From a phage, in the NCBI GenBank assembly GCA_018167155.1, contig GCA_018167155.1_4332.1: DNA of 43,803 bases; one strand, given 5' to 3'. The notes under the pieces were generated by a model, which was not told the DNA's origin, did no database searches, and was given only the letters and a program-made list of their open reading frames with translations. Numbering within the stretch: position 1 is the stretch's first letter; each line of letters begins with the position of its first letter. The position numbers and the translations under genes were made by a program. Shown here one piece after another: positions 8,499-17,088 of this stretch.

Positions 8499-8767
8499 TT
8501 TACCAACTCTACCGCGCCGTTGACAGGCGGGATACCACAGAGGCGTTGTGGCTATTGCGTGCACCGTCAGGTGCGCACCTGATGGAAGAGATGGCGTACT
8601 TAGGCAAAGTACCACGGCCTAAAGATATAGGCCGTCACGTGTCTCAGATTAAGCGCACGACTTTCGCCAAGCCTGACTTTTATGTCTTCGAGTCGATGTA
8701 TGGGTGGGCTATGCACTGCGAACATAAGACACGGCATTTAATTGACCAGTGGGAGAACAGGGCATGA
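8495..8767 (+). CDS. Hypothetical protein
   Basis: 90 aa, ATGA-coupled. Confidence 0.5.
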   Translation: MIYQLYRAVDRRDTTEALWLLRAPSGAHLMEEMAYLGKVPRPKDIGRHVSQIKRTTFAKPDFYVFESMYGWAMHCEHKTRHLIDQWENRA

Positions 8768-10014
8768 TTTTAAAAGAACGCGGTGGCAATAACGATGTGC
8801 ACGCATTACTGTCGCCGTCTGGGGCTAAAAAGTGGCTGGCGTGCAGTGCATCACTGGCCTGTGAAAAAGATATTCCTAACACGTCAGGTAAAGCCGCGGT
8901 ATTAGGCACAGCCATGCATACAATAGCCGAGGTCCATTTAAATCAGTACATCAAAGGCACTGCACTGCCGTTAGAGCGTGAAGTTGGTGCTTATGTACTG
9001 GACGAGGGCAAAGGCCAGATTAAGGCGCTAATCAGTCCGATGAAAGGTGCGGTACTGATTACGGCGGACATGATTGAGCAGGTGCGCAAGTACACCGACT
9101 ACTGCAAAGCGATTATCGATGTGGCGACTTACGCCAAACTCGAGATGCGTGTCAATCTTACTGAGGTGTTGCATCCGGGGTATGAAGGCGTTGAGACGTT
9201 CGGAACTGCTGACCTTGTTGCCGTCCAGGAACTGGCTAACACCGACGAGCACATGCTTATCATCGGCGACCTGAAAACTGGACGGCATCGTGTCGAAGCG
9301 AAAGAAAACAAGCAGCTTATGCTTTACGCGCTAGGTGTTTATCGCAGACTCAAGAGACGTTATAGCATAACAACCGTTCGTCTGGTCATCTTCCAGCCGT
9401 ACGCGGGCGGTGCGTCGGAGTGGGACATCTCGGTTGAAGGCCTGGAACTGTTCGCTAAGTTCGCGCAGAAACGAGCACTGTTAGCGCTTGATGCTTATTC
9501 CCGAGGTAAGAAGAACCTGAAAGCGTCGGACTTCCGGCCGTCTGTCGACGGTTGTCAGTGGTGTCGGTTCTCGGAACAGTGCGCCGCGCGAACAAAAACC
9601 GTTAACGCGGTATTGGCGGAAGAACTGGAAGACGACTTTGCACTGGAACTTACGCCAGAGCAACTTGTAGCTGAGTATGAGAAGTTGCCGTTGTTGCGCC
9701 AGCACATAGACAAGGTTGAGAAAGCGATGGCTGCTGCGTTGCATTCCGGTAAAAAAGTACCGGGGTACAAGCTGGTAGAAGGTCGTCCTGGTAATCGTGC
9801 GTGGAAAGACGCCGATGCGATTGAAGTGTCGCACGGAGACATTCTCAAAAAAGAGGTATTGATGTCCCCTACGGAGGCGGCAAAAGTTCTTTCGGCAGAT
9901 GAGATGGCAGCGCTTGAGCCATTTATCACACGTAAGCCGGGTGCACCATGTGTCGCAACGGCGGACGACAAACGTCCTGAGTGGAATCAGGTAACAGAGG
10001 AGGATTTGGAATGA
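8764..10014 (+). CDS. PD-(D/E)XK nuclease, Cas4/RecB-like (DUF2800 family)
   Basis: ORF track 8749..10014; ATG at 8764. HALLSPSGA N-term, GDLKTGRHRVEAKENKQLMLYALG (D...EAK...QxxxY nuclease motif) and C-terminal CQWCRFSEQC Cys cluster. Confidence 0.6.
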   Translation: MILKERGGNNDVHALLSPSGAKKWLACSASLACEKDIPNTSGKAAVLGTAMHTIAEVHLNQYIKGTALPLEREVGAYVLDEGKGQIKALISPMKGAVLITADMIEQVRKYTDYCKAIIDVATYAKLEMRVNLTEVLHPGYEGVETFGTADLVAVQELANTDEHMLIIGDLKTGRHRVEAKENKQLMLYALGVYRRLKRRYSITTVRLVIFQPYAGGASEWDISVEGLELFAKFAQKRALLALDAYSRGKKNLKASDFRPSVDGCQWCRFSEQCAARTKTVNAVLAEELEDDFALELTPEQLVAEYEKLPLLRQHIDKVEKAMAAALHSGKKVPGYKLVEGRPGNRAWKDADAIEVSHGDILKKEVLMSPTEAAKVLSADEMAALEPFITRKPGAPCVATADDKRPEWNQVTEEDLE

Positions 10015-10166
10015 GCACGATTCAAGAACTGCATAAAAGCTATCTACAACAACACCGAAACGGAGCAAAGCTAGGCCGGAGCAAAGCCGTATACCGTGTA
10101 TTCAGTATGGTAATTAGAGACGAGTCGGCGAAAATTATCCGTATGACAAAAGAAACGTTTAAATAA
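10011..10166 (+). CDS. Hypothetical small protein
   Basis: ORF track 9981..10166; ATG at 10011 overlaps the nuclease stop as ATGA. Confidence 0.4.
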   Translation: MSTIQELHKSYLQQHRNGAKLGRSKAVYRVFSMVIRDESAKIIRMTKETFK

Positions 10167-10170
10167 AGTG

Positions 10171-10199
10171 TTGACACCTGAATAGCGAACTATTATAGT
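10171..10199 (+). promoter_or_regulatory. Sigma70-like promoter TTGACA-N17-TATAGT with AATAG-N4-CTATT palindrome in the spacer
   Basis: TTGACA 10171-10176, TATAGT 10194-10199, palindrome AATAGCGAACTATT at 10181-10194. Confidence 0.6.
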
Positions 10200-10254
10200 T
10201 CTAATCACTGGCCGGGCCGTTCCCGGAGTAAACTGAAAACTGAGGAATCGAAAA

Positions 10255-10881
10255 ATGGGAATTAAGCTTAATCTGCGTAAAGTAAACACTGCATGGGTCA
10301 ATGTATTCGAACGCGAAAAAGACCGTGAAAATGATGATGGCTCAATTACTAAAGGCCAGTACAGCGCGACTATTATCCTGCCGTCTGATCATGCTCAAAT
10401 CGACGCACTATACGACACCGTTTACGCTGTAGTTGAAGAGGCGTTAGGTGCAGCCGCTGCCGAGAAGTGGATGAAGTCCAACTACGGTGAAGGTAAGCAC
10501 ATGGATAAATGCGCGATTAAAGACATCGCCGAGCGCGACAATCCGTTTGAAGACTTCCCGGAAGGCTTCTACTTCAAAGCGAAGGCACAGAAACAGCCAC
10601 TGATTGTAACCTCTAAAAAAGGTGAGACTCAGGTAGAGCAGGACTTCAATGTAGACGGCGAACAGATTGAAGGCGAACAGGTTTACAGCGGCTGCGTCGC
10701 TAACGTAAGCGTAGAAATCTGGTTTAGCCAGAAATACAAAGTACTCGGCGTTAACCTGCTGGCGATTAAATACGTCGGCGAAGGTAAAGCATTCGGCGGT
10801 TCTAAAGTCGCCGCAAGCGTCGACGACCTGGAAGATGACGAAGAAGACGAAGCACCGCGCCGCGAACGTCGCCGCCGTTAA
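10255..10881 (+). CDS. Putative ssDNA-binding protein (DUF2815-like) with acidic C-terminal tail
   Basis: 208 aa; context (after DUF2800 nuclease, before polA) and the C-terminal DDLEDDEEDE tail match phage SSB-like DUF2815 proteins. Confidence 0.45.
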   Translation: MGIKLNLRKVNTAWVNVFEREKDRENDDGSITKGQYSATIILPSDHAQIDALYDTVYAVVEEALGAAAAEKWMKSNYGEGKHMDKCAIKDIAERDNPFEDFPEGFYFKAKAQKQPLIVTSKKGETQVEQDFNVDGEQIEGEQVYSGCVANVSVEIWFSQKYKVLGVNLLAIKYVGEGKAFGGSKVAASVDDLEDDEEDEAPRRERRRR

Positions 10882-10898
10882 TATCTGAATCAATTTAA

Positions 10899-10925
10899 CT
10901 AAGGCCCTTCATTGGGCCTTTTTAC
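10899..10925 (+). terminator. Rho-independent terminator
   Basis: AAGGCCC-TTCATT-GGGCCTT stem-loop followed by TTTTTA. Confidence 0.55.
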
Positions 10926-10935
10926 CGGAGTCAGA

Positions 10936-11409
10936 ATGGAACATATAAAAGATTTTCTTAGTTATAACCGAGAAACCGGAATATTCACATGGATACAACC
11001 TACGTACAGACGAGGAAAACCCGGAGACATCGCAGGATGCATCAATAGTAGCGGATACTGGCGAATACCTTATATGGGTAGATATTACATGGCCCACAGG
11101 CTTGCTTGGTTTTTCGAGTACGGTGAATGGCCCGAGGGGCCTCTTGACCACATAAACCGTGACAGGTTAGACAATAGGATTTCTAACCTAAGGAAAGCAA
11201 CCACCGCAGATAATGTGCGAAACGCTAAAAATAAGGGAGCGAGAACGGGAGTTAAGGGAGTAGTTAAAAACGGCAACCGATTTTATGGGCGGGTACATTT
11301 TAACTACAAAAGTTATAACGCGGGCAGCTACGGAACTCTTGAAGAAGCAGAAAGCGCTGTAAAGAAATTAAGAGAAAAACTGCATAAGGAATTTTATTGC
11401 CATGACTAG
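10936..11409 (+). CDS. HNH homing endonuclease with AP2-like DNA-binding domain (paralog 1)
   Basis: ORF track 10912..11409; ATG at 10936. HINRDRLDNRISNLR is an HNH motif; GVKGV...GNRFYGRV...EEA is AP2-like. Confidence 0.7.
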   Translation: MEHIKDFLSYNRETGIFTWIQPTYRRGKPGDIAGCINSSGYWRIPYMGRYYMAHRLAWFFEYGEWPEGPLDHINRDRLDNRISNLRKATTADNVRNAKNKGARTGVKGVVKNGNRFYGRVHFNYKSYNAGSYGTLEEAESAVKKLREKLHKEFYCHD

Positions 11410-13600
11410 TTTATTATACCTGGATACCGAGACATTCTCCGAAGCAGACTTAAAGAAAGTCGGGTCGTATGCGTATGCGGAGCACCCAACGACAGAGGTT
11501 ATAATTTGTACGTATGCCGTTGACGACGGTCCTGTAGAAGTATGGGATTGCACTTCCGAACCAGTAATGCCAATAAGCCTACGCGTGGCGCTCCGTAATG
11601 TTATGCGTGGGCGTATGAAAATCGTGGGCCATAACTTTTTAATGTTCGACCGCCTAATCATGAAACATTGCTGGGGCTTTGATATTCCGGTAAGCAACAC
11701 CATCGATACTATGATTTGGGCGTTTCGTCACGCGCTGCCGGGATCACTTGATGCGTTGTGCGAAGTGCTTGGCGTGTCCGCCGACAATGCGAAAGATAAA
11801 CGCGGCAAGGCGCTGATTCAGCGTTTCTCTAAACCGACACCGAAGAACTACAAAATCCGCCGTTACACCGCCGAAACACACCCGGATGAGTGGGCGCTGT
11901 TCATCAAGTACGCCGTTAGTGACATCACTGCGATGCGTGAAGTCTTCCATAAGCTGCCACGTTGGGGTAACTCCGAGTTCGAAGACCGGGTACTGGAACT
12001 GGACCAGTTAATCAATGACCGTGGGTTTAAGGTCGACGTTGCACTGGCGGAAGCTGCGATTGAAGCAGTGGAGAAGCACAAGGCACAGTTACAGGAAGAA
12101 GCCCAACGAAAATACGGCGGCTCACTTACTGGTAAGGACTTTCTGCCGATTCTGCGTGAACTTGCGCCGGCGCACCGAATCCACAACGCACAGAAGTCGA
12201 CGCTGAATGACCTGTTGGCGGATGATGATTTACCGGACGATGCTCGAACGATTATCGAAATGCGCCTGGGGGCCGCGTCCACTGCGTCAACGAAATATAA
12301 CCCATTGCTGCTGGGCCGCTCGTCTGACGACCGCCGCCGTGGTTGCTTACAGTACGGTGGGGCGAAACGTACTCTGCGGTGGGCGGGTAAAGGCTTCCAG
12401 CCGCAGAACCTGGCGCGCGGGTACTATCACGATGATGAACTGGATAAAGGCATTTCAGCGTTACTTAAAGGCCGCGCGCATCGCCGTTTCGATGTCGCTA
12501 AGCTAACAGCATCAACGGTGCGAAGCTGCATCATACCGGAAGCTGGACATAAGTTTGTCGTTGCCGATTACTCTAACGTCGAAGGCCGTGGGCTTGCGTG
12601 GCTGGCGGGCGAAGAAACCGCGCTTGATACGTTCCGCGCCGGACTGGATATTTATTGCGTAACCGCAGGTAAGATGTTTGGCATGGACCCAGATGATATT
12701 AAGAAAAACTTTAAGGAAATCAGACAGATAGGTAAGGCTTGCGAGCTTGGCCTCGGCTATGAAGGCGGCGTCGGAGCGTTCGTTACGTTTGCTAAAAACT
12801 TAGGTCTTGACCTTATTGAGATGGCAAAAACAATGGACGGTACTTTCCCTGATCATATATGGGCGGCTACCGCACGTGGTTATGAATGGGCGCGTATCCA
12901 GGAAGCAAAGCGACCACCGCATCCTGGTGAAAAGGACGACCGACCATCGTATATTCTGGACAAGAAAGTGTGGCGCACATGCGACGCAATCAAGCGTATG
13001 TGGCGTGAGTCACACCCTGAAACAGTAGCGTTCTGGCGCGACCTTAAAGACGGAATTTTAGCCGCTGTGCGTAATCCTGGTCGTGAATTTTGGGCGGGAG
13101 CACACTTGCGCAGGAATGGCGAGCGCGCTATCCGAATATGGAGAACAGTAGAATTTGATTCATCCGGTAGGAAGGTTCCTGGTTGGTGGTTGTGCGTGGA
13201 GTTGCCGTCGGGCCGTATCCTTTCGTATCCGGGAATCGGAGTTAGCGTGACAAAGGAAACAGACGAAGACGGACGGGTAAACACGAATGTGCGAATCAAG
13301 TACCAAGGTGAAAACCAGTTAACCCGCCAATGGACTACCCTGTACACCCACGGCGGTAAAGCCTGTGAAAACATTGTTCAGGCGCTGTGCCGTGATTTAC
13401 TCGCATATGCGATGGTTAATGTTGAGGGTGGCGGGTATCCCATCGTGCTTTCGGTACACGATGAACTGGTATGTGAAACTCCGGATACGCCCGAGTACAC
13501 GGTGGCTGAACTGGAAAAATTAATGTGCGCGTTGCCTGAGTGGGCGGAGGGGTTCCCTCTTGTAGCGGAAGGTGCGGAGATGAAGCGCTATGCTAAGTAA
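11402..13600 (+). CDS. DNA polymerase, family A, with N-terminal 3'-5' exonuclease domain
   Basis: 732 aa; LYLDTETF (exo I), DYSNVEGRGLAWLAGE (motif A), RQIGKACELGLGYEGG (motif B), VLSVHDELV (motif C). Confidence 0.85.
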   Translation: MTSLLYLDTETFSEADLKKVGSYAYAEHPTTEVIICTYAVDDGPVEVWDCTSEPVMPISLRVALRNVMRGRMKIVGHNFLMFDRLIMKHCWGFDIPVSNTIDTMIWAFRHALPGSLDALCEVLGVSADNAKDKRGKALIQRFSKPTPKNYKIRRYTAETHPDEWALFIKYAVSDITAMREVFHKLPRWGNSEFEDRVLELDQLINDRGFKVDVALAEAAIEAVEKHKAQLQEEAQRKYGGSLTGKDFLPILRELAPAHRIHNAQKSTLNDLLADDDLPDDARTIIEMRLGAASTASTKYNPLLLGRSSDDRRRGCLQYGGAKRTLRWAGKGFQPQNLARGYYHDDELDKGISALLKGRAHRRFDVAKLTASTVRSCIIPEAGHKFVVADYSNVEGRGLAWLAGEETALDTFRAGLDIYCVTAGKMFGMDPDDIKKNFKEIRQIGKACELGLGYEGGVGAFVTFAKNLGLDLIEMAKTMDGTFPDHIWAATARGYEWARIQEAKRPPHPGEKDDRPSYILDKKVWRTCDAIKRMWRESHPETVAFWRDLKDGILAAVRNPGREFWAGAHLRRNGERAIRIWRTVEFDSSGRKVPGWWLCVELPSGRILSYPGIGVSVTKETDEDGRVNTNVRIKYQGENQLTRQWTTLYTHGGKACENIVQALCRDLLAYAMVNVEGGGYPIVLSVHDELVCETPDTPEYTVAELEKLMCALPEWAEGFPLVAEGAEMKRYAK

Positions 13601-13721
13601 ACTGATTATCGCGGGGCTGGCAGGATTTGCCGCCGGTGTCTACTGTCACGAGGGGCAATACGGCATGACTGTCGCCGTATTAGGCATGTTCATCGCAATT
13701 TATCTGTGGGTGCTGGAATGA
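13590..13721 (+). CDS. Hypothetical small membrane protein (hand-called, 43 aa)
   Basis: Reads MLSKLIIAGLAGFAAGVYCHEGQYGMTVAVLGMFIAIYLWVLE; its stop overlaps the next ATG. Confidence 0.3.
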   Translation: MLSKLIIAGLAGFAAGVYCHEGQYGMTVAVLGMFIAIYLWVLE

Positions 13722-13807
13722 AAATTTACTGGTTATACGAAGAAGACTGTCGAATCTGCCCGCGTTGCGGGATTGAGCATACAAAACGAGAGGGGTGCGT
13801 ATTATGA
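13718..13807 (+). CDS. Hypothetical mini-protein with CxxCxxC motif (hand-called, 29 aa)
   Basis: Reads MKIYWLYEEDCRICPRCGIEHTKREGCVL; ATGA overlaps at both ends. Confidence 0.25.
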   Translation: MKIYWLYEEDCRICPRCGIEHTKREGCVL

Positions 13808-13998
13808 GCAACAAACCATTTAGTAAGAAACTAGCCGCGTTAGTGGATATGCCAGAATGGGAATTTATCATGGTAATGGGAGATGGGTTCTTTAGTGACG
13901 TTTGTGCAGGATGTACGCACAAAGGTGTTTACTACTCAGAACACGACATCTACCAAGCGTACTTCCTGCGTAACCCGGATGCGGAGCCGTTGTTATGA
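13804..13998 (+). CDS. Hypothetical protein
   Basis: ORF track 13795..13998; ATG at 13804. Confidence 0.45.
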   Translation: MSNKPFSKKLAALVDMPEWEFIMVMGDGFFSDVCAGCTHKGVYYSEHDIYQAYFLRNPDAEPLL

Positions 13999-14492
13999 AA
14001 GCACCAAGTGACGATATAAAAGATTTTCTGTCATACGACCCGGATACCGGGATATTTAAATGGGTCAAGCACAGATGCCAGACCGCGAAACCTGGAGATG
14101 TTGTTACCTACAAGGACCGTAAAGGGTACATATTGTTAGGATGGAATAGGGTGTATTACCGCGCACACAGGCTGGCGTGGTGGTGGGTATACGGAGAGAT
14201 GCCAACTAAGCAAATAGACCATATTAACGGCATACGGGACGATAACCGGATTTGTAACCTACGGCTTGCGGATGAATTTCAACAGAACCATAACCGCAAG
14301 ACCCCAGTTACGAACACCAGCGGCGTGAAAGGGGTTAACTGTAGTAAGCCTCATAATGCTTGGTGTGCTCGAGTTGCTTTTAAAGGTACACGCTATCAGA
14401 TTGGGTATTTCCAGAACCTAAATGAAGCAGAGGAATCGCTGAGAGAATTTAGGGCAAAACTGCACGGAGAGTTTTGCAACCATGGCGACTAA
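13995..14492 (+). CDS. HNH homing endonuclease with AP2-like domain (paralog 2)
   Basis: 165 aa; shares DIKDFLSYD...TGIF.W, AHRLAWW..YGE.P, DHINGIRDDNRICNLR and GVKGV...EEA with the paralog at 10936. Confidence 0.7.
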   Translation: MKAPSDDIKDFLSYDPDTGIFKWVKHRCQTAKPGDVVTYKDRKGYILLGWNRVYYRAHRLAWWWVYGEMPTKQIDHINGIRDDNRICNLRLADEFQQNHNRKTPVTNTSGVKGVNCSKPHNAWCARVAFKGTRYQIGYFQNLNEAEESLREFRAKLHGEFCNHGD

Positions 14493-14796
14493 AGAGGGCC
14501 GCGTACAGAAATACGCAAAAGAGCGATTCGAGGCCATTGGTGGCCTCGTTCGTAAACTTTCCTACGAAAACAGACGCGCAGCGATGGATTTGTTAGTGGT
14601 CCTGCCCGGCGGCATCATCTGGTTCGTCGAGATTAAGAAAGACGAAAACACGAAGCCAGACCCGCACCAGCTACGGGAACATGAGAGATTCCGGAAACGT
14701 GGTGCGAATGTTTTTGTCGTTGGTTCGTTTAAACAGGTTGACACCCTAATAGCGAACTATTATAGTCAGCCCTACACCAACAATATAAGGAATTGA
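14482..14796 (+). CDS. VRR-NUC domain nuclease
   Basis: 104 aa; DLLVVLPGGIIWFVEIKK...QLREHERFRKRGANVFVV matches the VRR-NUC PD-(D/E)XK pattern. Confidence 0.6.
   Translation: MATKEGRVQKYAKERFEAIGGLVRKLSYENRRAAMDLLVVLPGGIIWFVEIKKDENTKPDPHQLREHERFRKRGANVFVVGSFKQVDTLIANYYSQPYTNNIRN
14738..14766 (+). promoter_or_regulatory. Sigma70-like promoter TTGACA-N17-TATAGT with AATAG-N4-CTATT palindrome, inside the 3' end of the VRR-NUC gene
   Basis: TTGACA 14738-14743, TATAGT 14761-14766, palindrome AATAGCGAACTATT at about 14748-14761. Confidence 0.55.
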
Positions 14797-14799
14797 GAA

Positions 14800-14991
14800 A
14801 TGAAACACGAATATGACCGCAAACCAGCACGTGACATTGTACCAGGTGACATGATTTTCAACGTTAAAACACGTCGGCCTGTTGCCGTAGATACGGTGTA
14901 CGTAGAGTCGAATGGTAAACTGGTTATTGAAGACGTAACTGGCAACGTTACGGCGTTCGGGCGTAAAGAGTTAGTTCTGGTGCTGAAATGA
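14800..14991 (+). CDS. Hypothetical protein
   Basis: 63 aa ORF with SD AAGGAATTGAG. Confidence 0.5.
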   Translation: MKHEYDRKPARDIVPGDMIFNVKTRRPVAVDTVYVESNGKLVIEDVTGNVTAFGRKELVLVLK

Positions 14992-15671
14992 TTGTCTGGT
15001 CATTGTTTGACGGTTCGGGCCTTATGGCCCAACCGTGGGCGGAAGCGGGCCATACTTGCTATTGTTTCAACTACGACGGTGCCGACCACGGCGACTACGC
15101 ACGACTGGGTGCAAAAGTTGAACACGACAATATCCACTATATAAACGCGTGGATTGATAATAAGTTCGACTTCGAGGTTGCGCCGGATATTATTTTCGCG
15201 TTCCCTCCGTGCACAGATTTAGCCGTTAGCGGTGCGGCGCATTTTGAAACGAAGCGGAAGAAGAATCCAACGTTCCAAGTAGAGGCCGTGATTACATGCA
15301 AAGTGGCGGCGCGTCTGGCTAAAAAGTACAACGTACCTTATATGATTGAGAACCCGGTTAGTGTTCTTTCGTCTTTATGGCGTAAGCCGGATTATGTATT
15401 CAACCCGTATGAATACGGTGGTTATTTACCCGAAGACGACACGCATCCAATGTTCCCTGAATACATAAAACCACGGGACGCGTACCCTAAAAAGACATGT
15501 CTTTGGACGGGTAATGGTTTCGTAATGCCAGTTAAGTCATGTGTTGCTTCCAGAGACGGGTACTCTGACCAACACAATAAATTAGGCGGTAAATCGGTGA
15601 GGACAAAAACAATACGCAGCCTTACCCCGCGCGGTTTCGCAAAAGCAGTTTATGAGGCCAATCATGTCTAA
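14988..15671 (+). CDS. DNA (cytosine-5)-methyltransferase-like protein, short form
   Basis: LFDGSG (motif I-like), FAFPPCTDLAVSGAA (PC motif IV) and MIENPVSV (ENV motif VI). Confidence 0.55.
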   Translation: MIVWSLFDGSGLMAQPWAEAGHTCYCFNYDGADHGDYARLGAKVEHDNIHYINAWIDNKFDFEVAPDIIFAFPPCTDLAVSGAAHFETKRKKNPTFQVEAVITCKVAARLAKKYNVPYMIENPVSVLSSLWRKPDYVFNPYEYGGYLPEDDTHPMFPEYIKPRDAYPKKTCLWTGNGFVMPVKSCVASRDGYSDQHNKLGGKSVRTKTIRSLTPRGFAKAVYEANHV

Positions 15672-17088
15672 GTTTCAAAGGCGCGAATACCAGAAAATAA
15701 TGACGTCGTTTATGCTACAGCACCCACGTTGCAATATCTGGTGCGGTATGGGCGGCGGCAAGACCTCGTCGACAATGTGGGTGCTCAACCGACTGTTTCG
15801 CAACGGGCAGCTTACGGACGACGACAGGGTATTAATCCTCGCCCCGCTGCGCGTTGCGTCCGGCACATGGCCCGCAGAACAAGAGAAATGGCGATTCCCA
15901 TGCCTGAGTGTCGTCGATGCAACGGGTTCAGAGAAGCGCCGCATCGCGGCACTGGAGTCGGATGCTAACGTGGTGTGCACGAACTACGAAGTTATCGAAT
16001 GGCTGATTGACTACTACGGCAAAGACGACTGGCCTTTTACGGTTATTGTTGCCGATGAAAGCACGAAACTTAAATCATTCCGCAGCCGTTCAGGTGGTAG
16101 CAAGAGAGCGAAGGCGCTTAGTAAAGTGGCGTTCGGTAAGGTTAAGCGTTTCATCAACCTTACTGGCACCCCGTCGCCGAACGGCCTCAAGGACTTGTGG
16201 GGGCAGAACTGGTTTATCGACGCTGGCGAGCGCCTCGGGTCTTCATACACGGCATTCACCGACCGATGGTTTAACTCGGTACAGAAAGGCAAATCGGCTA
16301 TGGCGCGTGAGTATCATGCGCGCCCGGGTGCGGATACTGAGATTCATCAGAAGATGAAAGACATCAGTCTCACGATTGACGCTGCCGAGTGGTTTGGGTG
16401 TGAAGCACCGATTATTGTACCGGTTGAAATCGACCTGCCGAAGAAAGCACGTCAGGCGTACATCGATATGGAGGAAAAGTTATTCGCGGAACTGGAGAGC
16501 GGGGAAGTTGAAGCGGCTAACGCCGCGGCGAAGACCTCAAAATGCTTGCAGATTGCATCTGGTGCCGTATATGTGACGGGTGAAGACGGGGAAGCAACGA
16601 AAGACTGGGAGAAAGTGCACGACACGAAACTGGATGCGCTCGAGTCAATTGTTGAGGAGCTACAAGGTGCGCCGTTGCTTGTGGCTTATCAGTTTAAGCA
16701 TGAACTGGAGCGCATCCTTAAGCGATTCCCGCAGGCGCAGGCGTTCGCCAAAGGTGCGAAGGGTAATAAGCAGATGGAAGCGTGGAACCGTGGCGAAATC
16801 GAAATCTTATGCGTGCACCCGGCGTCAGCCGGGCATGGTTTGAATTTACAGGACGGCGGGCATCATCTGGCGTTTATTTCGCAAGGCTGGAATCTTGAAC
16901 ACTATTTGCAGGTTGTCGAGCGAATAGGCCCGGTCCGCCAGAAACAGGCAGGACACGAGCGGCCGGTGTTCCTGTACCACATCGTTGCTAAAGACACGCT
17001 GGACGAGGTTGTTGCCGCGCGTACAGACGAGAAGAAATCGGTCCAGGAAGAATTGCTTAATTATATGAAGAGAAGAGGTAAGAAATGA
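15664..17088 (+). CDS. SNF2-family helicase
   Basis: ORF track 15652..17088; ATG at 15664. Walker A CGMGGGKT, VIVADESTKLK, LTGTPSPNGLKDLW and C-terminal GHGLNLQDGGHHLAF helicase motifs. Confidence 0.75.
   Translation: MSKFQRREYQKIMTSFMLQHPRCNIWCGMGGGKTSSTMWVLNRLFRNGQLTDDDRVLILAPLRVASGTWPAEQEKWRFPCLSVVDATGSEKRRIAALESDANVVCTNYEVIEWLIDYYGKDDWPFTVIVADESTKLKSFRSRSGGSKRAKALSKVAFGKVKRFINLTGTPSPNGLKDLWGQNWFIDAGERLGSSYTAFTDRWFNSVQKGKSAMAREYHARPGADTEIHQKMKDISLTIDAAEWFGCEAPIIVPVEIDLPKKARQAYIDMEEKLFAELESGEVEAANAAAKTSKCLQIASGAVYVTGEDGEATKDWEKVHDTKLDALESIVEELQGAPLLVAYQFKHELERILKRFPQAQAFAKGAKGNKQMEAWNRGEIEILCVHPASAGHGLNLQDGGHHLAFISQGWNLEHYLQVVERIGPVRQKQAGHERPVFLYHIVAKDTLDEVVAARTDEKKSVQEELLNYMKRRGKK

Follow-up and report, generated by a model that had tools for sequence, protein, structure and literature searches.

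Free-standing homing endonuclease genes (HEGs) have been described in several groups of phages. The T4-type enzymes SegB, SegF, SegG and MobE cause marker exclusion and co-conversion (PMC2330249, PMC2790892). A second group, in which an HNN nuclease is joined to an AP2 domain, was found as free-standing genes in the Xanthomonas phages Xp10, OP1 and Xop411 and in T5, T1 and RB16/RB43 (Magnani et al. 2004, cited in PMC2248197). Here we analysed a phage contig of 43,803 nucleotides (nt), GCA_018167155.1_4332.1 of assembly GCA_018167155.1, which is called the window and was placed by megablast in the Guernseyvirinae, genus Kagunavirus, as a K1G-like phage. It carries two genes of this kind, HEG1 between the gene of a single-stranded DNA-binding protein (ssb) and the family A DNA polymerase gene (pol), and HEG2 directly in front of the VRR-NUC nuclease gene (Table 1). 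We consider it likely that both are independently acquired, free-standing HEGs of the HNH_3 (I-HmuI-type, 'HNN') + AP2 family. Each of them forms a discrete cassette, has fixed boundaries and is missing from most relatives, and each leaves the operon intact through an overlap with neighbouring genes.

I-HmuI of the Bacillus phage SPO1 (PDB 1U3E) resembles the two proteins in its N-terminal beta-rich DNA-binding region, which is followed by a DH…N…N His-Me finger, and all three are associated with a phage DNA polymerase gene. It differs in being encoded in a group I intron within the polymerase gene, whereas HEG1 and HEG2 are free-standing and intergenic. At its C-terminus, I-HmuI has helical and helix-turn-helix DNA-binding modules, where HEG1 and HEG2 have an AP2 fold; the sequence identity is only about 19%, and HEG2 has a glutamine at the equivalent of N96. 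With the phage HNN-AP2 genes they share the two-domain architecture with the conserved boxes HRLAW, DH, DNR, NLR and xN, the several copies per genome and the variable presence among relatives (PMC2248197). Degenerate HNN-AP2 remnants were read as gain followed by decay, and for the Xanthomonas (Xoo) phages, where conserved flanks were not found, a sequence-independent, random insertion was proposed by the authors (PMC2248197). In contrast, the sites of HEG1 and HEG2 are fixed and precisely bounded and have conserved empty alleles, and a flanking haplotype is linked to HEG1. Site-specific homing therefore appears to fit them better than random insertion.

Like the T4-type HEGs, both genes are intergenic and lie beside essential or conserved genes. 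The preferential inheritance of the HEG together with its flanking markers, as described for the T4 type (PMC2330249, PMC2790892), is the predicted outcome here too, and a tract of about 250 nt in pol that is linked to HEG1 resembles a co-conversion product of such a HEG. The Seg proteins are GIY-YIG enzymes and MobE is an HNH enzyme without an AP2 domain, in contrast to the HNH + AP2 combination found here. The activity of the T4-type enzymes was shown by experiment, whereas that of HEG1 and HEG2 is predicted.

Close orthologues have already been deposited. In EM1 (PQ571293), gp66 and gp62 are both annotated as HNH endonucleases, and the order ssb-HEG1-pol…orf64-HEG2-VRR-NUC is that of the window. 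The phage vB-Eco-KMB36 (OR525703) has the HEGs at the same positions and differs by a putative polymerase intein and by the lack of orf64. The deposited orthologues at the same positions are 97-98% identical in nucleotides for HEG1 and 98-99% identical in amino acids (aa) for HEG2. An orthologous gene of the Salmonella phage SETP3 was entered as 'NHN endonuclease'. Homing endonucleases, inteins and mosaicism are mentioned in Jerseyvirus papers (PMC8425127); the literature on Jerseyvirus and Kagunavirus contained general statements of this kind, and no functional study of HEG1, HEG2 or their orthologues was found in the literature searched.

The assignment of the two proteins to a family was examined at several levels. 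In a BLASTP comparison they were 44% identical over 158 aa (E=2e-38), and the 5' ends of the two genes have a stretch of 50 nt in common that is 76% identical. Further copies of the family were not present in the window (n=2). Both proteins matched the Pfam family HNH_3 (PF13392), HEG1 with 56.5 bits and HEG2 with 46.7 bits against a gathering threshold of 24.8, and PHROG 99 'HNH endonuclease' with E=1e-58 and 1e-63, respectively. A homologue search with HEG2 yielded 795 sequences, many of them annotated as HNH_3 + AP2. When 56 family members were aligned, all 56 matched HNH_3 and 48 individually matched Pfam AP2 (PF00847). HEG1 and HEG2 themselves gave no AP2 match, neither as whole proteins at E≤0.01 nor as C-terminal fragments at E≤10.

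The AP2 domain became visible with the family profile. Its N-terminal two thirds matched I-HmuI (1u3e, E=5e-7), and its C-terminal third (positions 95-158) matched the plant AP2 proteins WRI1 (7wq5, E=7.6e-7) and TEM1 (7et4, E=3.6e-4). PDB searches with the single sequences gave only E=0.42 to 1u3e for HEG1 and a spurious hydrolase for HEG2, and no NCBIfam model was found for either. An AlphaFold2 model of HEG2 (pLDDT 93) has a ββα core with the strands 73-76 and 89-92 and then the helix 94-99, and a C-terminus of the AP2 type with the strands 114-117, 122-129 and 132-139 and the helix 142-160. In a Foldseek search the top PDB match of the model was I-HmuI (1u3e, prob 0.95), with a global TM of 0.38 and differing domain orientations. 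The AP2 part was superimposed on AtERF1 (1gcc) with an rmsd of 1.5 Å over 49 columns and on TEM1 (7et5) with 1.8 Å over 54 columns (prob 1.00). HEG1 aligns to HEG2 over the AP2-like region without large gaps (BLASTP). An earlier reading of the window, made without database searches and called here the sequence-only reading, had named the two proteins HNH-AP2 endonucleases. Judged by the family, the profile and the modelled fold, this label is right; the HNH_3 matches lie above the gathering threshold, and AP2 is recognised through the family profile and the HEG2 model instead of a single-sequence Pfam search.

The residues D71, H72, N84, N93 and N96 of HEG1 align with D74, H75, N87, N96 and N99 of I-HmuI, such that the catalytic residues are all intact. 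Work by Shen and co-workers in 2004 reportedly assigned the roles of the I-HmuI residues, with an Asp-His general-base pair, a structural Asn and the metal-binding Asn N96. In HEG2, D75, H76 and N88 are kept, Q97 stands at the position of N96 with N98 adjacent to it, and the invariant N100 is kept (Q97-N100 correspond to the window positions 14283-14294). An Asn was found at this position in 51 of the 56 family members and a Gln in the other 5, which are HEG2 and the four sequences nearest to it and belong to the HEG2 clade only.

Among the neighbours of HEG2 in the family, HEG1 ranks 25th of 55. A local tandem duplication was rejected as the origin of the pair, since many proteins of other phages are nearer to HEG2 than HEG1 is. 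By this placement, HEG1 and HEG2 represent separate lineages within one large family, each acquired independently. They had been called paralogous; the homology stands, with 44% identity within one family, and the two are not each other's closest relatives.

We then inspected the borders of the HEG1 cassette. The ATG at 10936 follows a GGAG Shine-Dalgarno (SD) sequence (10928-10931) by 5 nt, and the reading frame ends with the TAG at 11407-11409. The same coding sequence (CDS) of 474 nt is annotated in EM1. It encodes 157 aa and not 165 aa as first proposed, a length that needs a TTG start at 10912 inside the ssb hairpin and without an SD. The 3' edge of this hairpin (…TTTTTAC, ending at 10925), which is present in HEG-free alleles too, is the left boundary of the cassette; the RNA of 10882-10950 folds with -19.4 kcal/mol (z=-2.9). 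The hairpin edge GGGCCTTTTTAC was found exactly in 39 loci, and up to this point the occupied alleles run collinear with the empty ones. Beyond it, the empty alleles read TAAGGGTCGAAAATAATG…, which is the SD and the start of the polymerase, and the occupied alleles read CGGAGTCAGAATG…, which is the SD and the start of HEG1. The two converge again at about the third polymerase codon.

At the right border, the 3' end of HEG1 holds the polymerase SD (AAGGA, 11388-11392) and the polymerase ATG, with the overlap of 8 nt (11402-11409) that had been noticed before. The native ribosome-binding site and the first codons of the polymerase are replaced by the HEG1 3' end, and the native SD is deleted. 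A 24-mer across the empty ssb-pol junction (TTTTTACTAAGGGTCGAAAATAAT) was exact in 26 loci and present with ≤2 mismatches in 34. Both junctions were the same in 4 of the 4 HEG1-carrying loci of the comparison set.

HEG2 has a different setting. It starts 394 nt past the pol stop, with three small open reading frames (ORFs) in between. Its ATG overlaps the stop of orf64 (ATGA) in the window, and at the other end HEG2 extends 11 nt into VRR-NUC (start at 14482) and provides the first VRR-NUC codons. As at pol, the native ribosome-binding site and first codons are thus replaced by the 3' end of the HEG. In every HEG2-carrying genome examined, HEG2 abuts VRR-NUC in this way and gives its first codons. 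The 5' neighbour varies; it is orf64 in the window and in EM1, and directly the 29-aa ORF in KMB36 and in the related loci L041 and L064. The orf64/67 gene is an optional cassette that is missing from the HEG2-carrying loci L001, L041 and L064. The gene itself, with its 165 aa, had been predicted correctly. The two HEGs had been described as bracketing polA, and this applies to HEG1, whereas HEG2 belongs to the VRR-NUC junction.

The distribution of the cassettes was determined in 76 polymerase loci from IMG/VR and from records of the phage collection INPHARED. The gap between ssb and pol was 57-65 nt in most of the 72 measurable loci versus 518-523 nt with HEG1. The HEG1 cassette was observed in four of the 72 (KMB36, L003, L005 and L016), and some other junctions held unrelated small ORFs of 51 or 92 aa. 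About 459 INPHARED records match the region overall, duplicate and near-clonal records included. HEG1 DNA was found in six of them (EM1, VIPECOTPH05A, KMB36, VIPECOMC04, fBC-Eco01 and P AB-2017), always directly upstream of pol. HEG2 was found at ≥90% aa identity in 55, namely in 4 Escherichia phages and in 51 SETP3-type Salmonella phages, many of which are nearly clonal. In every listed HEG2 record with an annotation, the gene overlaps or abuts the VRR-NUC or 'Holliday junction resolvase' gene. Examples of empty alleles are L004, whose polymerase is 98% aa identical, SP-101, Jersey and the K1G-type phages.

A gene that is present in some close relatives and missing from others at one site, with borders that are precise and do not vary, is what one expects of a homing gene. 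The search for endonuclease-free alleles that the sequence-only reading had proposed thus returned them at both sites and in most relatives, instead of both genes at identical positions throughout. The elements also assort independently, and all combinations were observed: HEG1 occurs with or without HEG2, and for each of them the putative polymerase intein may be present or absent, as may orf64. An orthologue of HEG1 with 68% identity sits at the ssb-pol site of L078, whose polymerase is only 64% identical.

Within each genome pair, the divergence of the HEGs was compared with that of their flanks. In the comparison of the window with EM1, the synonymous divergence (dS) was 0.11 for HEG1 and 0.057 for the pol codons 1-80, versus 0.35 in ssb, 0.95 in the remainder of pol and 0.78 in the helicase. 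For HEG2 it was 0.03, versus 0.41 for VRR-NUC. The dS of the HEGs was 3- to 13-fold below that of the flanking genes. In Salmonella Jerseyvirus backgrounds HEG2 is 94% identical, and ssb there is 75% identical to that of the window. The history of the HEGs is discordant with that of their flanks, which points to horizontal spread.

The 5' part of pol (11410-11700) was 92-94% identical to that of four HEG1-carrying loci and 71-76% identical to that of most HEG-less Kagunavirus loci, where the middle of pol is about 90% identical. This haplotype of about 250 nt extends from 11402 to a block boundary near 11650 and is perfectly associated with HEG1 in the sampled loci. It is compatible with co-conversion, of which such a pattern is expected; an association alone is no proof of it.

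Both genes are under purifying selection. The ratio of nonsynonymous to synonymous divergence (ω) was 0.01-0.03 for HEG1 over dS of up to 0.6, equal to that of ssb and pol, and 0.09-0.18 for HEG2, similar to that of VRR-NUC. Degenerate copies, as expected from a cycle of invasion, decay and loss, were observed as well. In Jersey, gp40 (L081:3617-3739) is a HEG2 relic of 40 aa that has kept some 25 codons of the N-terminus and 20 nt or so of the 3' end, with the HNH and AP2 parts deleted; the Jersey annotators had already recorded that it resembles the N-terminal part of the SETP3 protein. A region of a second locus (L017:6382-6506) was entered as a HEG2 relic together with it. Taken together, the empty sites, the constant junctions, the independent assortment, the low divergence, the HEG1-linked haplotype and the Jersey relic support the homing that had been suggested for this region.

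Several points weigh against homing. Four HEG-less loci are 83-86% identical to the window in the 5' part of pol. For HEG2, no linked tract was found in the flanks; VRR-NUC is no more alike in HEG2-carrying genomes, and its 5' haplotype is present in HEG-less loci too. The Asn-to-Gln exchange of the HEG2 clade at the metal-ligand position may alter the chemistry and might mark a changed activity, for instance nicking or DNA binding only. Cassettes that encode no nuclease are present in the ssb-pol and pol-VRR-NUC slots as well and have ATGA/TTATGA-type junctions (orf64, a 49-aa membrane ORF, the 51-aa and 92-aa ORFs and methyltransferases), and presence and absence alone therefore need not mean a nuclease. 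The 1-nt insertion in the HEG1 of L003, a frameshift, is either real decay or an assembly error, and the record counts include the duplicates mentioned above. Cleavage, target sites, biased inheritance and marker exclusion are what we infer for HEG1 and HEG2. The many unrelated optional cassettes in both slots, the lack of a visible co-conversion tract at HEG2 and its Q97 instead of the canonical metal-binding Asn would fit if the two genes were passive accessory cassettes (morons) that moved between phages only through ordinary recombination, homologous or illegitimate, at gene junctions that are conserved. Their proteins would then not drive their own spread and would be inert or only bind DNA. 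Such cassettes do not lead one to expect a purifying selection of core-gene strength (ω≈0.02 for HEG1), which argues for a working protein, nor catalytic residues that are all intact in HEG1. Both HEGs are also markedly less diverged than their flanks, HEG1 is tied to a haplotype of about 250 nt in the adjacent essential gene, and its lineage recurs at the ssb-pol site of the distant phage L078. We consider it unlikely that the two genes are passive.

Selection of this strength could also come from a benefit to the phage. The two proteins would then be domesticated nucleases, used as weapons by which co-infecting relatives are degraded or excluded, or as nickases that aid replication or recombination at the replication module, and HEG1 would be further entrenched by supplying the translation-initiation region of the polymerase. 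The ω of HEG1, which over dS of up to 0.6 is as low as in ssb and pol, indicates a long-term maintenance, the SD and ATG of pol lie inside HEG1 with the native SD deleted, and both genes appear to be co-transcribed with the replication genes. Enzymes of the I-HmuI type are nickases, which also agrees with such a role. Against it stands that about 99% of the sequenced relatives are without HEG1 and about 88% without HEG2, hence the genes are dispensable, and the relics show that their loss is tolerated. Recurrent homing alone can explain the purifying selection while empty targets abound, and marker exclusion is a by-product of homing, such that a domesticated role overlaps with homing itself. 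As an explanation of both genes we regard domestication as very unlikely. For HEG1, a related proposal is that it is an entrenched, selectively maintained module and an inter-phage weapon that forces the linked polymerase 5' allele into co-infecting relatives. HEG1 may not be a purely selfish passenger, since it supplies the SD and first codons of the polymerase and has an ω≈0.02 at the level of core genes; we see this proposal as rather improbable. If it were true, a precise loss of HEG1 would cripple polymerase expression. HNH genes also stand beside the terminase in many cos siphophages, and a role in terminase-dependent packaging was considered. Membership in the HNH superfamily is all that HEG1 and HEG2 have in common with them. 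Both are located in the replication module (ssb, pol, VRR-NUC) and not beside the terminase or portal gene, they are missing from most relatives, and their architecture is that of the I-HmuI/AP2 homing type. By gene position and dispensability this role was rejected, and we give it next to no chance.

Homing of HEG1 and HEG2 could then proceed as follows. In a co-infection of a HEG carrier with a HEG-less relative, the enzyme would bind the DNA with its N-terminal beta region and its AP2 domain and would nick or cut the empty allele at the junction or close to it. The best candidate for the target of HEG1 is either the 24-mer TTTTTACTAAGGGTCGAAAATAAT, which is conserved, or the first 250 nt or so of a HEG-less pol. 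Recombinational repair off the HEG-carrying genome would copy in the HEG and adjacent sequence, which would account for the HEG1-linked haplotype of the pol 5' region. The insertion would destroy or change the site and so make the allele of the carrier immune. Selection would keep both HEGs functional, and copies that no longer home would decay, as in Jersey.

Table 1. Position of HEG1, HEG2 and neighbouring features in the window
Feature	Position	Strand	Remarks
HEG1, HNH_3 + AP2-like endonuclease gene	10936..11409	+	157 aa, 474-nt CDS
HEG2, HNH_3 + AP2-fold endonuclease gene	13995..14492	+	165 aa
DUF2800/PD-(D/E)XK nuclease gene	8749-10014		replication module
ssb, Enc34-type ssDNA-binding protein gene	10255-10881		5' neighbour of HEG1
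Stem-loop AAGGCCC-ttcatt-GGGCCTT then TTTAC	10901..10925	+	terminator-like, 3' of ssb stop
pol, family A DNA polymerase gene	11402..13600	+	732 aa; DNA_pol_A + 3'-5' exonuclease; putative intein absent
orf43, membrane-like 43-aa peptide	13590-13721	+	between pol and HEG2
orf29, CxxC zinc-ribbon-like 29-aa peptide	13718-13807	+	between pol and HEG2
orf64/67	13804 or 13795 to 13998	+	PHROG 25645
VRR-NUC nuclease gene	14482..14796	+	'Holliday junction resolvase' in relatives; PHROG 93 and 5702
63-aa ORF	after VRR-NUC, before the Dcm-like methyltransferase gene		replication module
Weakly Dcm-like (cytosine-5) methyltransferase gene	14988-15671		before the helicase
SNF2-type helicase gene	15652-17088		named from the annotation of relatives

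The replication module of the window contains, in this order, the DUF2800 nuclease, ssb, HEG1, pol, the three small ORFs, HEG2, VRR-NUC, the 63-aa ORF, the methyltransferase and the helicase. Its closest deposited genome is vB-Eco-KMB36, with 92% identity over 81% of the length of the replication region (megablast). The K1-capsule phages JSSK01 and K1G share about 91% identity with the structural half of the window. HEG1 and HEG2 each have their own start and stop codon between genes and do not belong to the intron- or intein-encoded class. No Rfam family, group I and II introns included, was matched by the window at the gathering threshold or by 10700-14700 at E≤1. A promoter specific for the HEGs was not found, and the counts of the promoter and terminator scans were not above shuffled controls. 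Since neither an intron-like RNA nor a promoter-like site specific to them was detected, both HEGs appear to be free-standing and to be transcribed together with the replication genes. The RNA folds around the starts of pol, HEG2 and VRR-NUC were unremarkable.

Near-consensus sites were noted at two places, a promoter-like TTGACA-17-TATAGT at 10171-10199 upstream of ssb and a sigma-70-like site at 14738-14766 upstream of the 63-aa ORF. Upstream of ssb, the stretch 10015-10254 (ORF 9981-10166, 61 aa) had no counterpart in any of 78 fetched loci and could be aligned from query position 1 only in a few phage records (Hrm2, G AB-2017 and L AB-2017); it looks like another optional cassette. In the chain of small ORFs between pol and HEG2, pol and orf43 overlap by 11 nt, and ATGA overlaps connect orf43 with orf29, orf29 with orf64 and orf64 with HEG2. 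The TTATGA-type junctions of this chain (13590-13998) are the start points of optional cassettes in relatives too.

Other genes were observed at these places in related phages. In L012 (6202-6717) a different HNH_3+AP2 endonuclease gene directly follows the pol stop. The interval between pol and VRR-NUC contains Cys-rich ORFs of 210-235 aa with no clear Pfam match in L026 (6241-6948), L039 (3556-4188), L043 and L070, and an N6/N4 DNA methylase in L078 (6229-6876). The methyltransferase slot at 14988-15671 is variable and could be aligned in only 12 related loci; in EM1 (L079:5994-6491) a third PHROG-99/HNH_3 endonuclease gene takes the place of the Dcm-like methyltransferase.

In about 14 related loci, SP-101 and KMB36 included, the polymerase has an in-frame insert of 300 aa (L002:3625-4524; L001). 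The insertion point corresponds to the window positions 12737-12742, between the pol codons A446 and C447 within RQIGKACELGLGY, where the window allele is insert-free. The insert starts with CLHRHT…, contains TEDHKIL and ends with …VYDLIDVEDGNRFLIASDSGFLVAHN before the cysteine, and intein blocks A, B, F and G were recognised by eye. It had no sequence match in Pfam, NCBIfam or the PDB, and from these motifs read by eye it is a putative intein. The polymerase of M01 (L080, OR061069.1, 1983-4193) is annotated as six fragments ('DNA polymerase I (x6)'). A split or intron-containing gene was considered here; many other short CDSs lie nearby, and the entry looks like a frameshift-rich record and not like biology.

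In conclusion, the HEG1/HEG2 locus is a standard instance of a known phenomenon, with near-identical genes already annotated in EM1 and KMB36, and the current understanding of homing endonucleases is unchanged by it. Its value lies in being a clean natural example of the homing cycle, with occupied, empty and decayed alleles in therapeutically relevant phages of E. coli and Salmonella. An essential gene contains a linked tract, and the locus has two more optional elements, the putative intein and the third HEG slot. The two small proteins are candidates for site-specific nickases or nucleases whose substrate can be predicted as the conserved empty junction. When HEG-carrying and HEG-less relatives are mixed in cocktails or in engineered Kagunavirus chassis, the alleles of the polymerase region may be inherited with a bias. 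The locus also helps to explain the mosaicism of the replication modules of the Guernseyvirinae.

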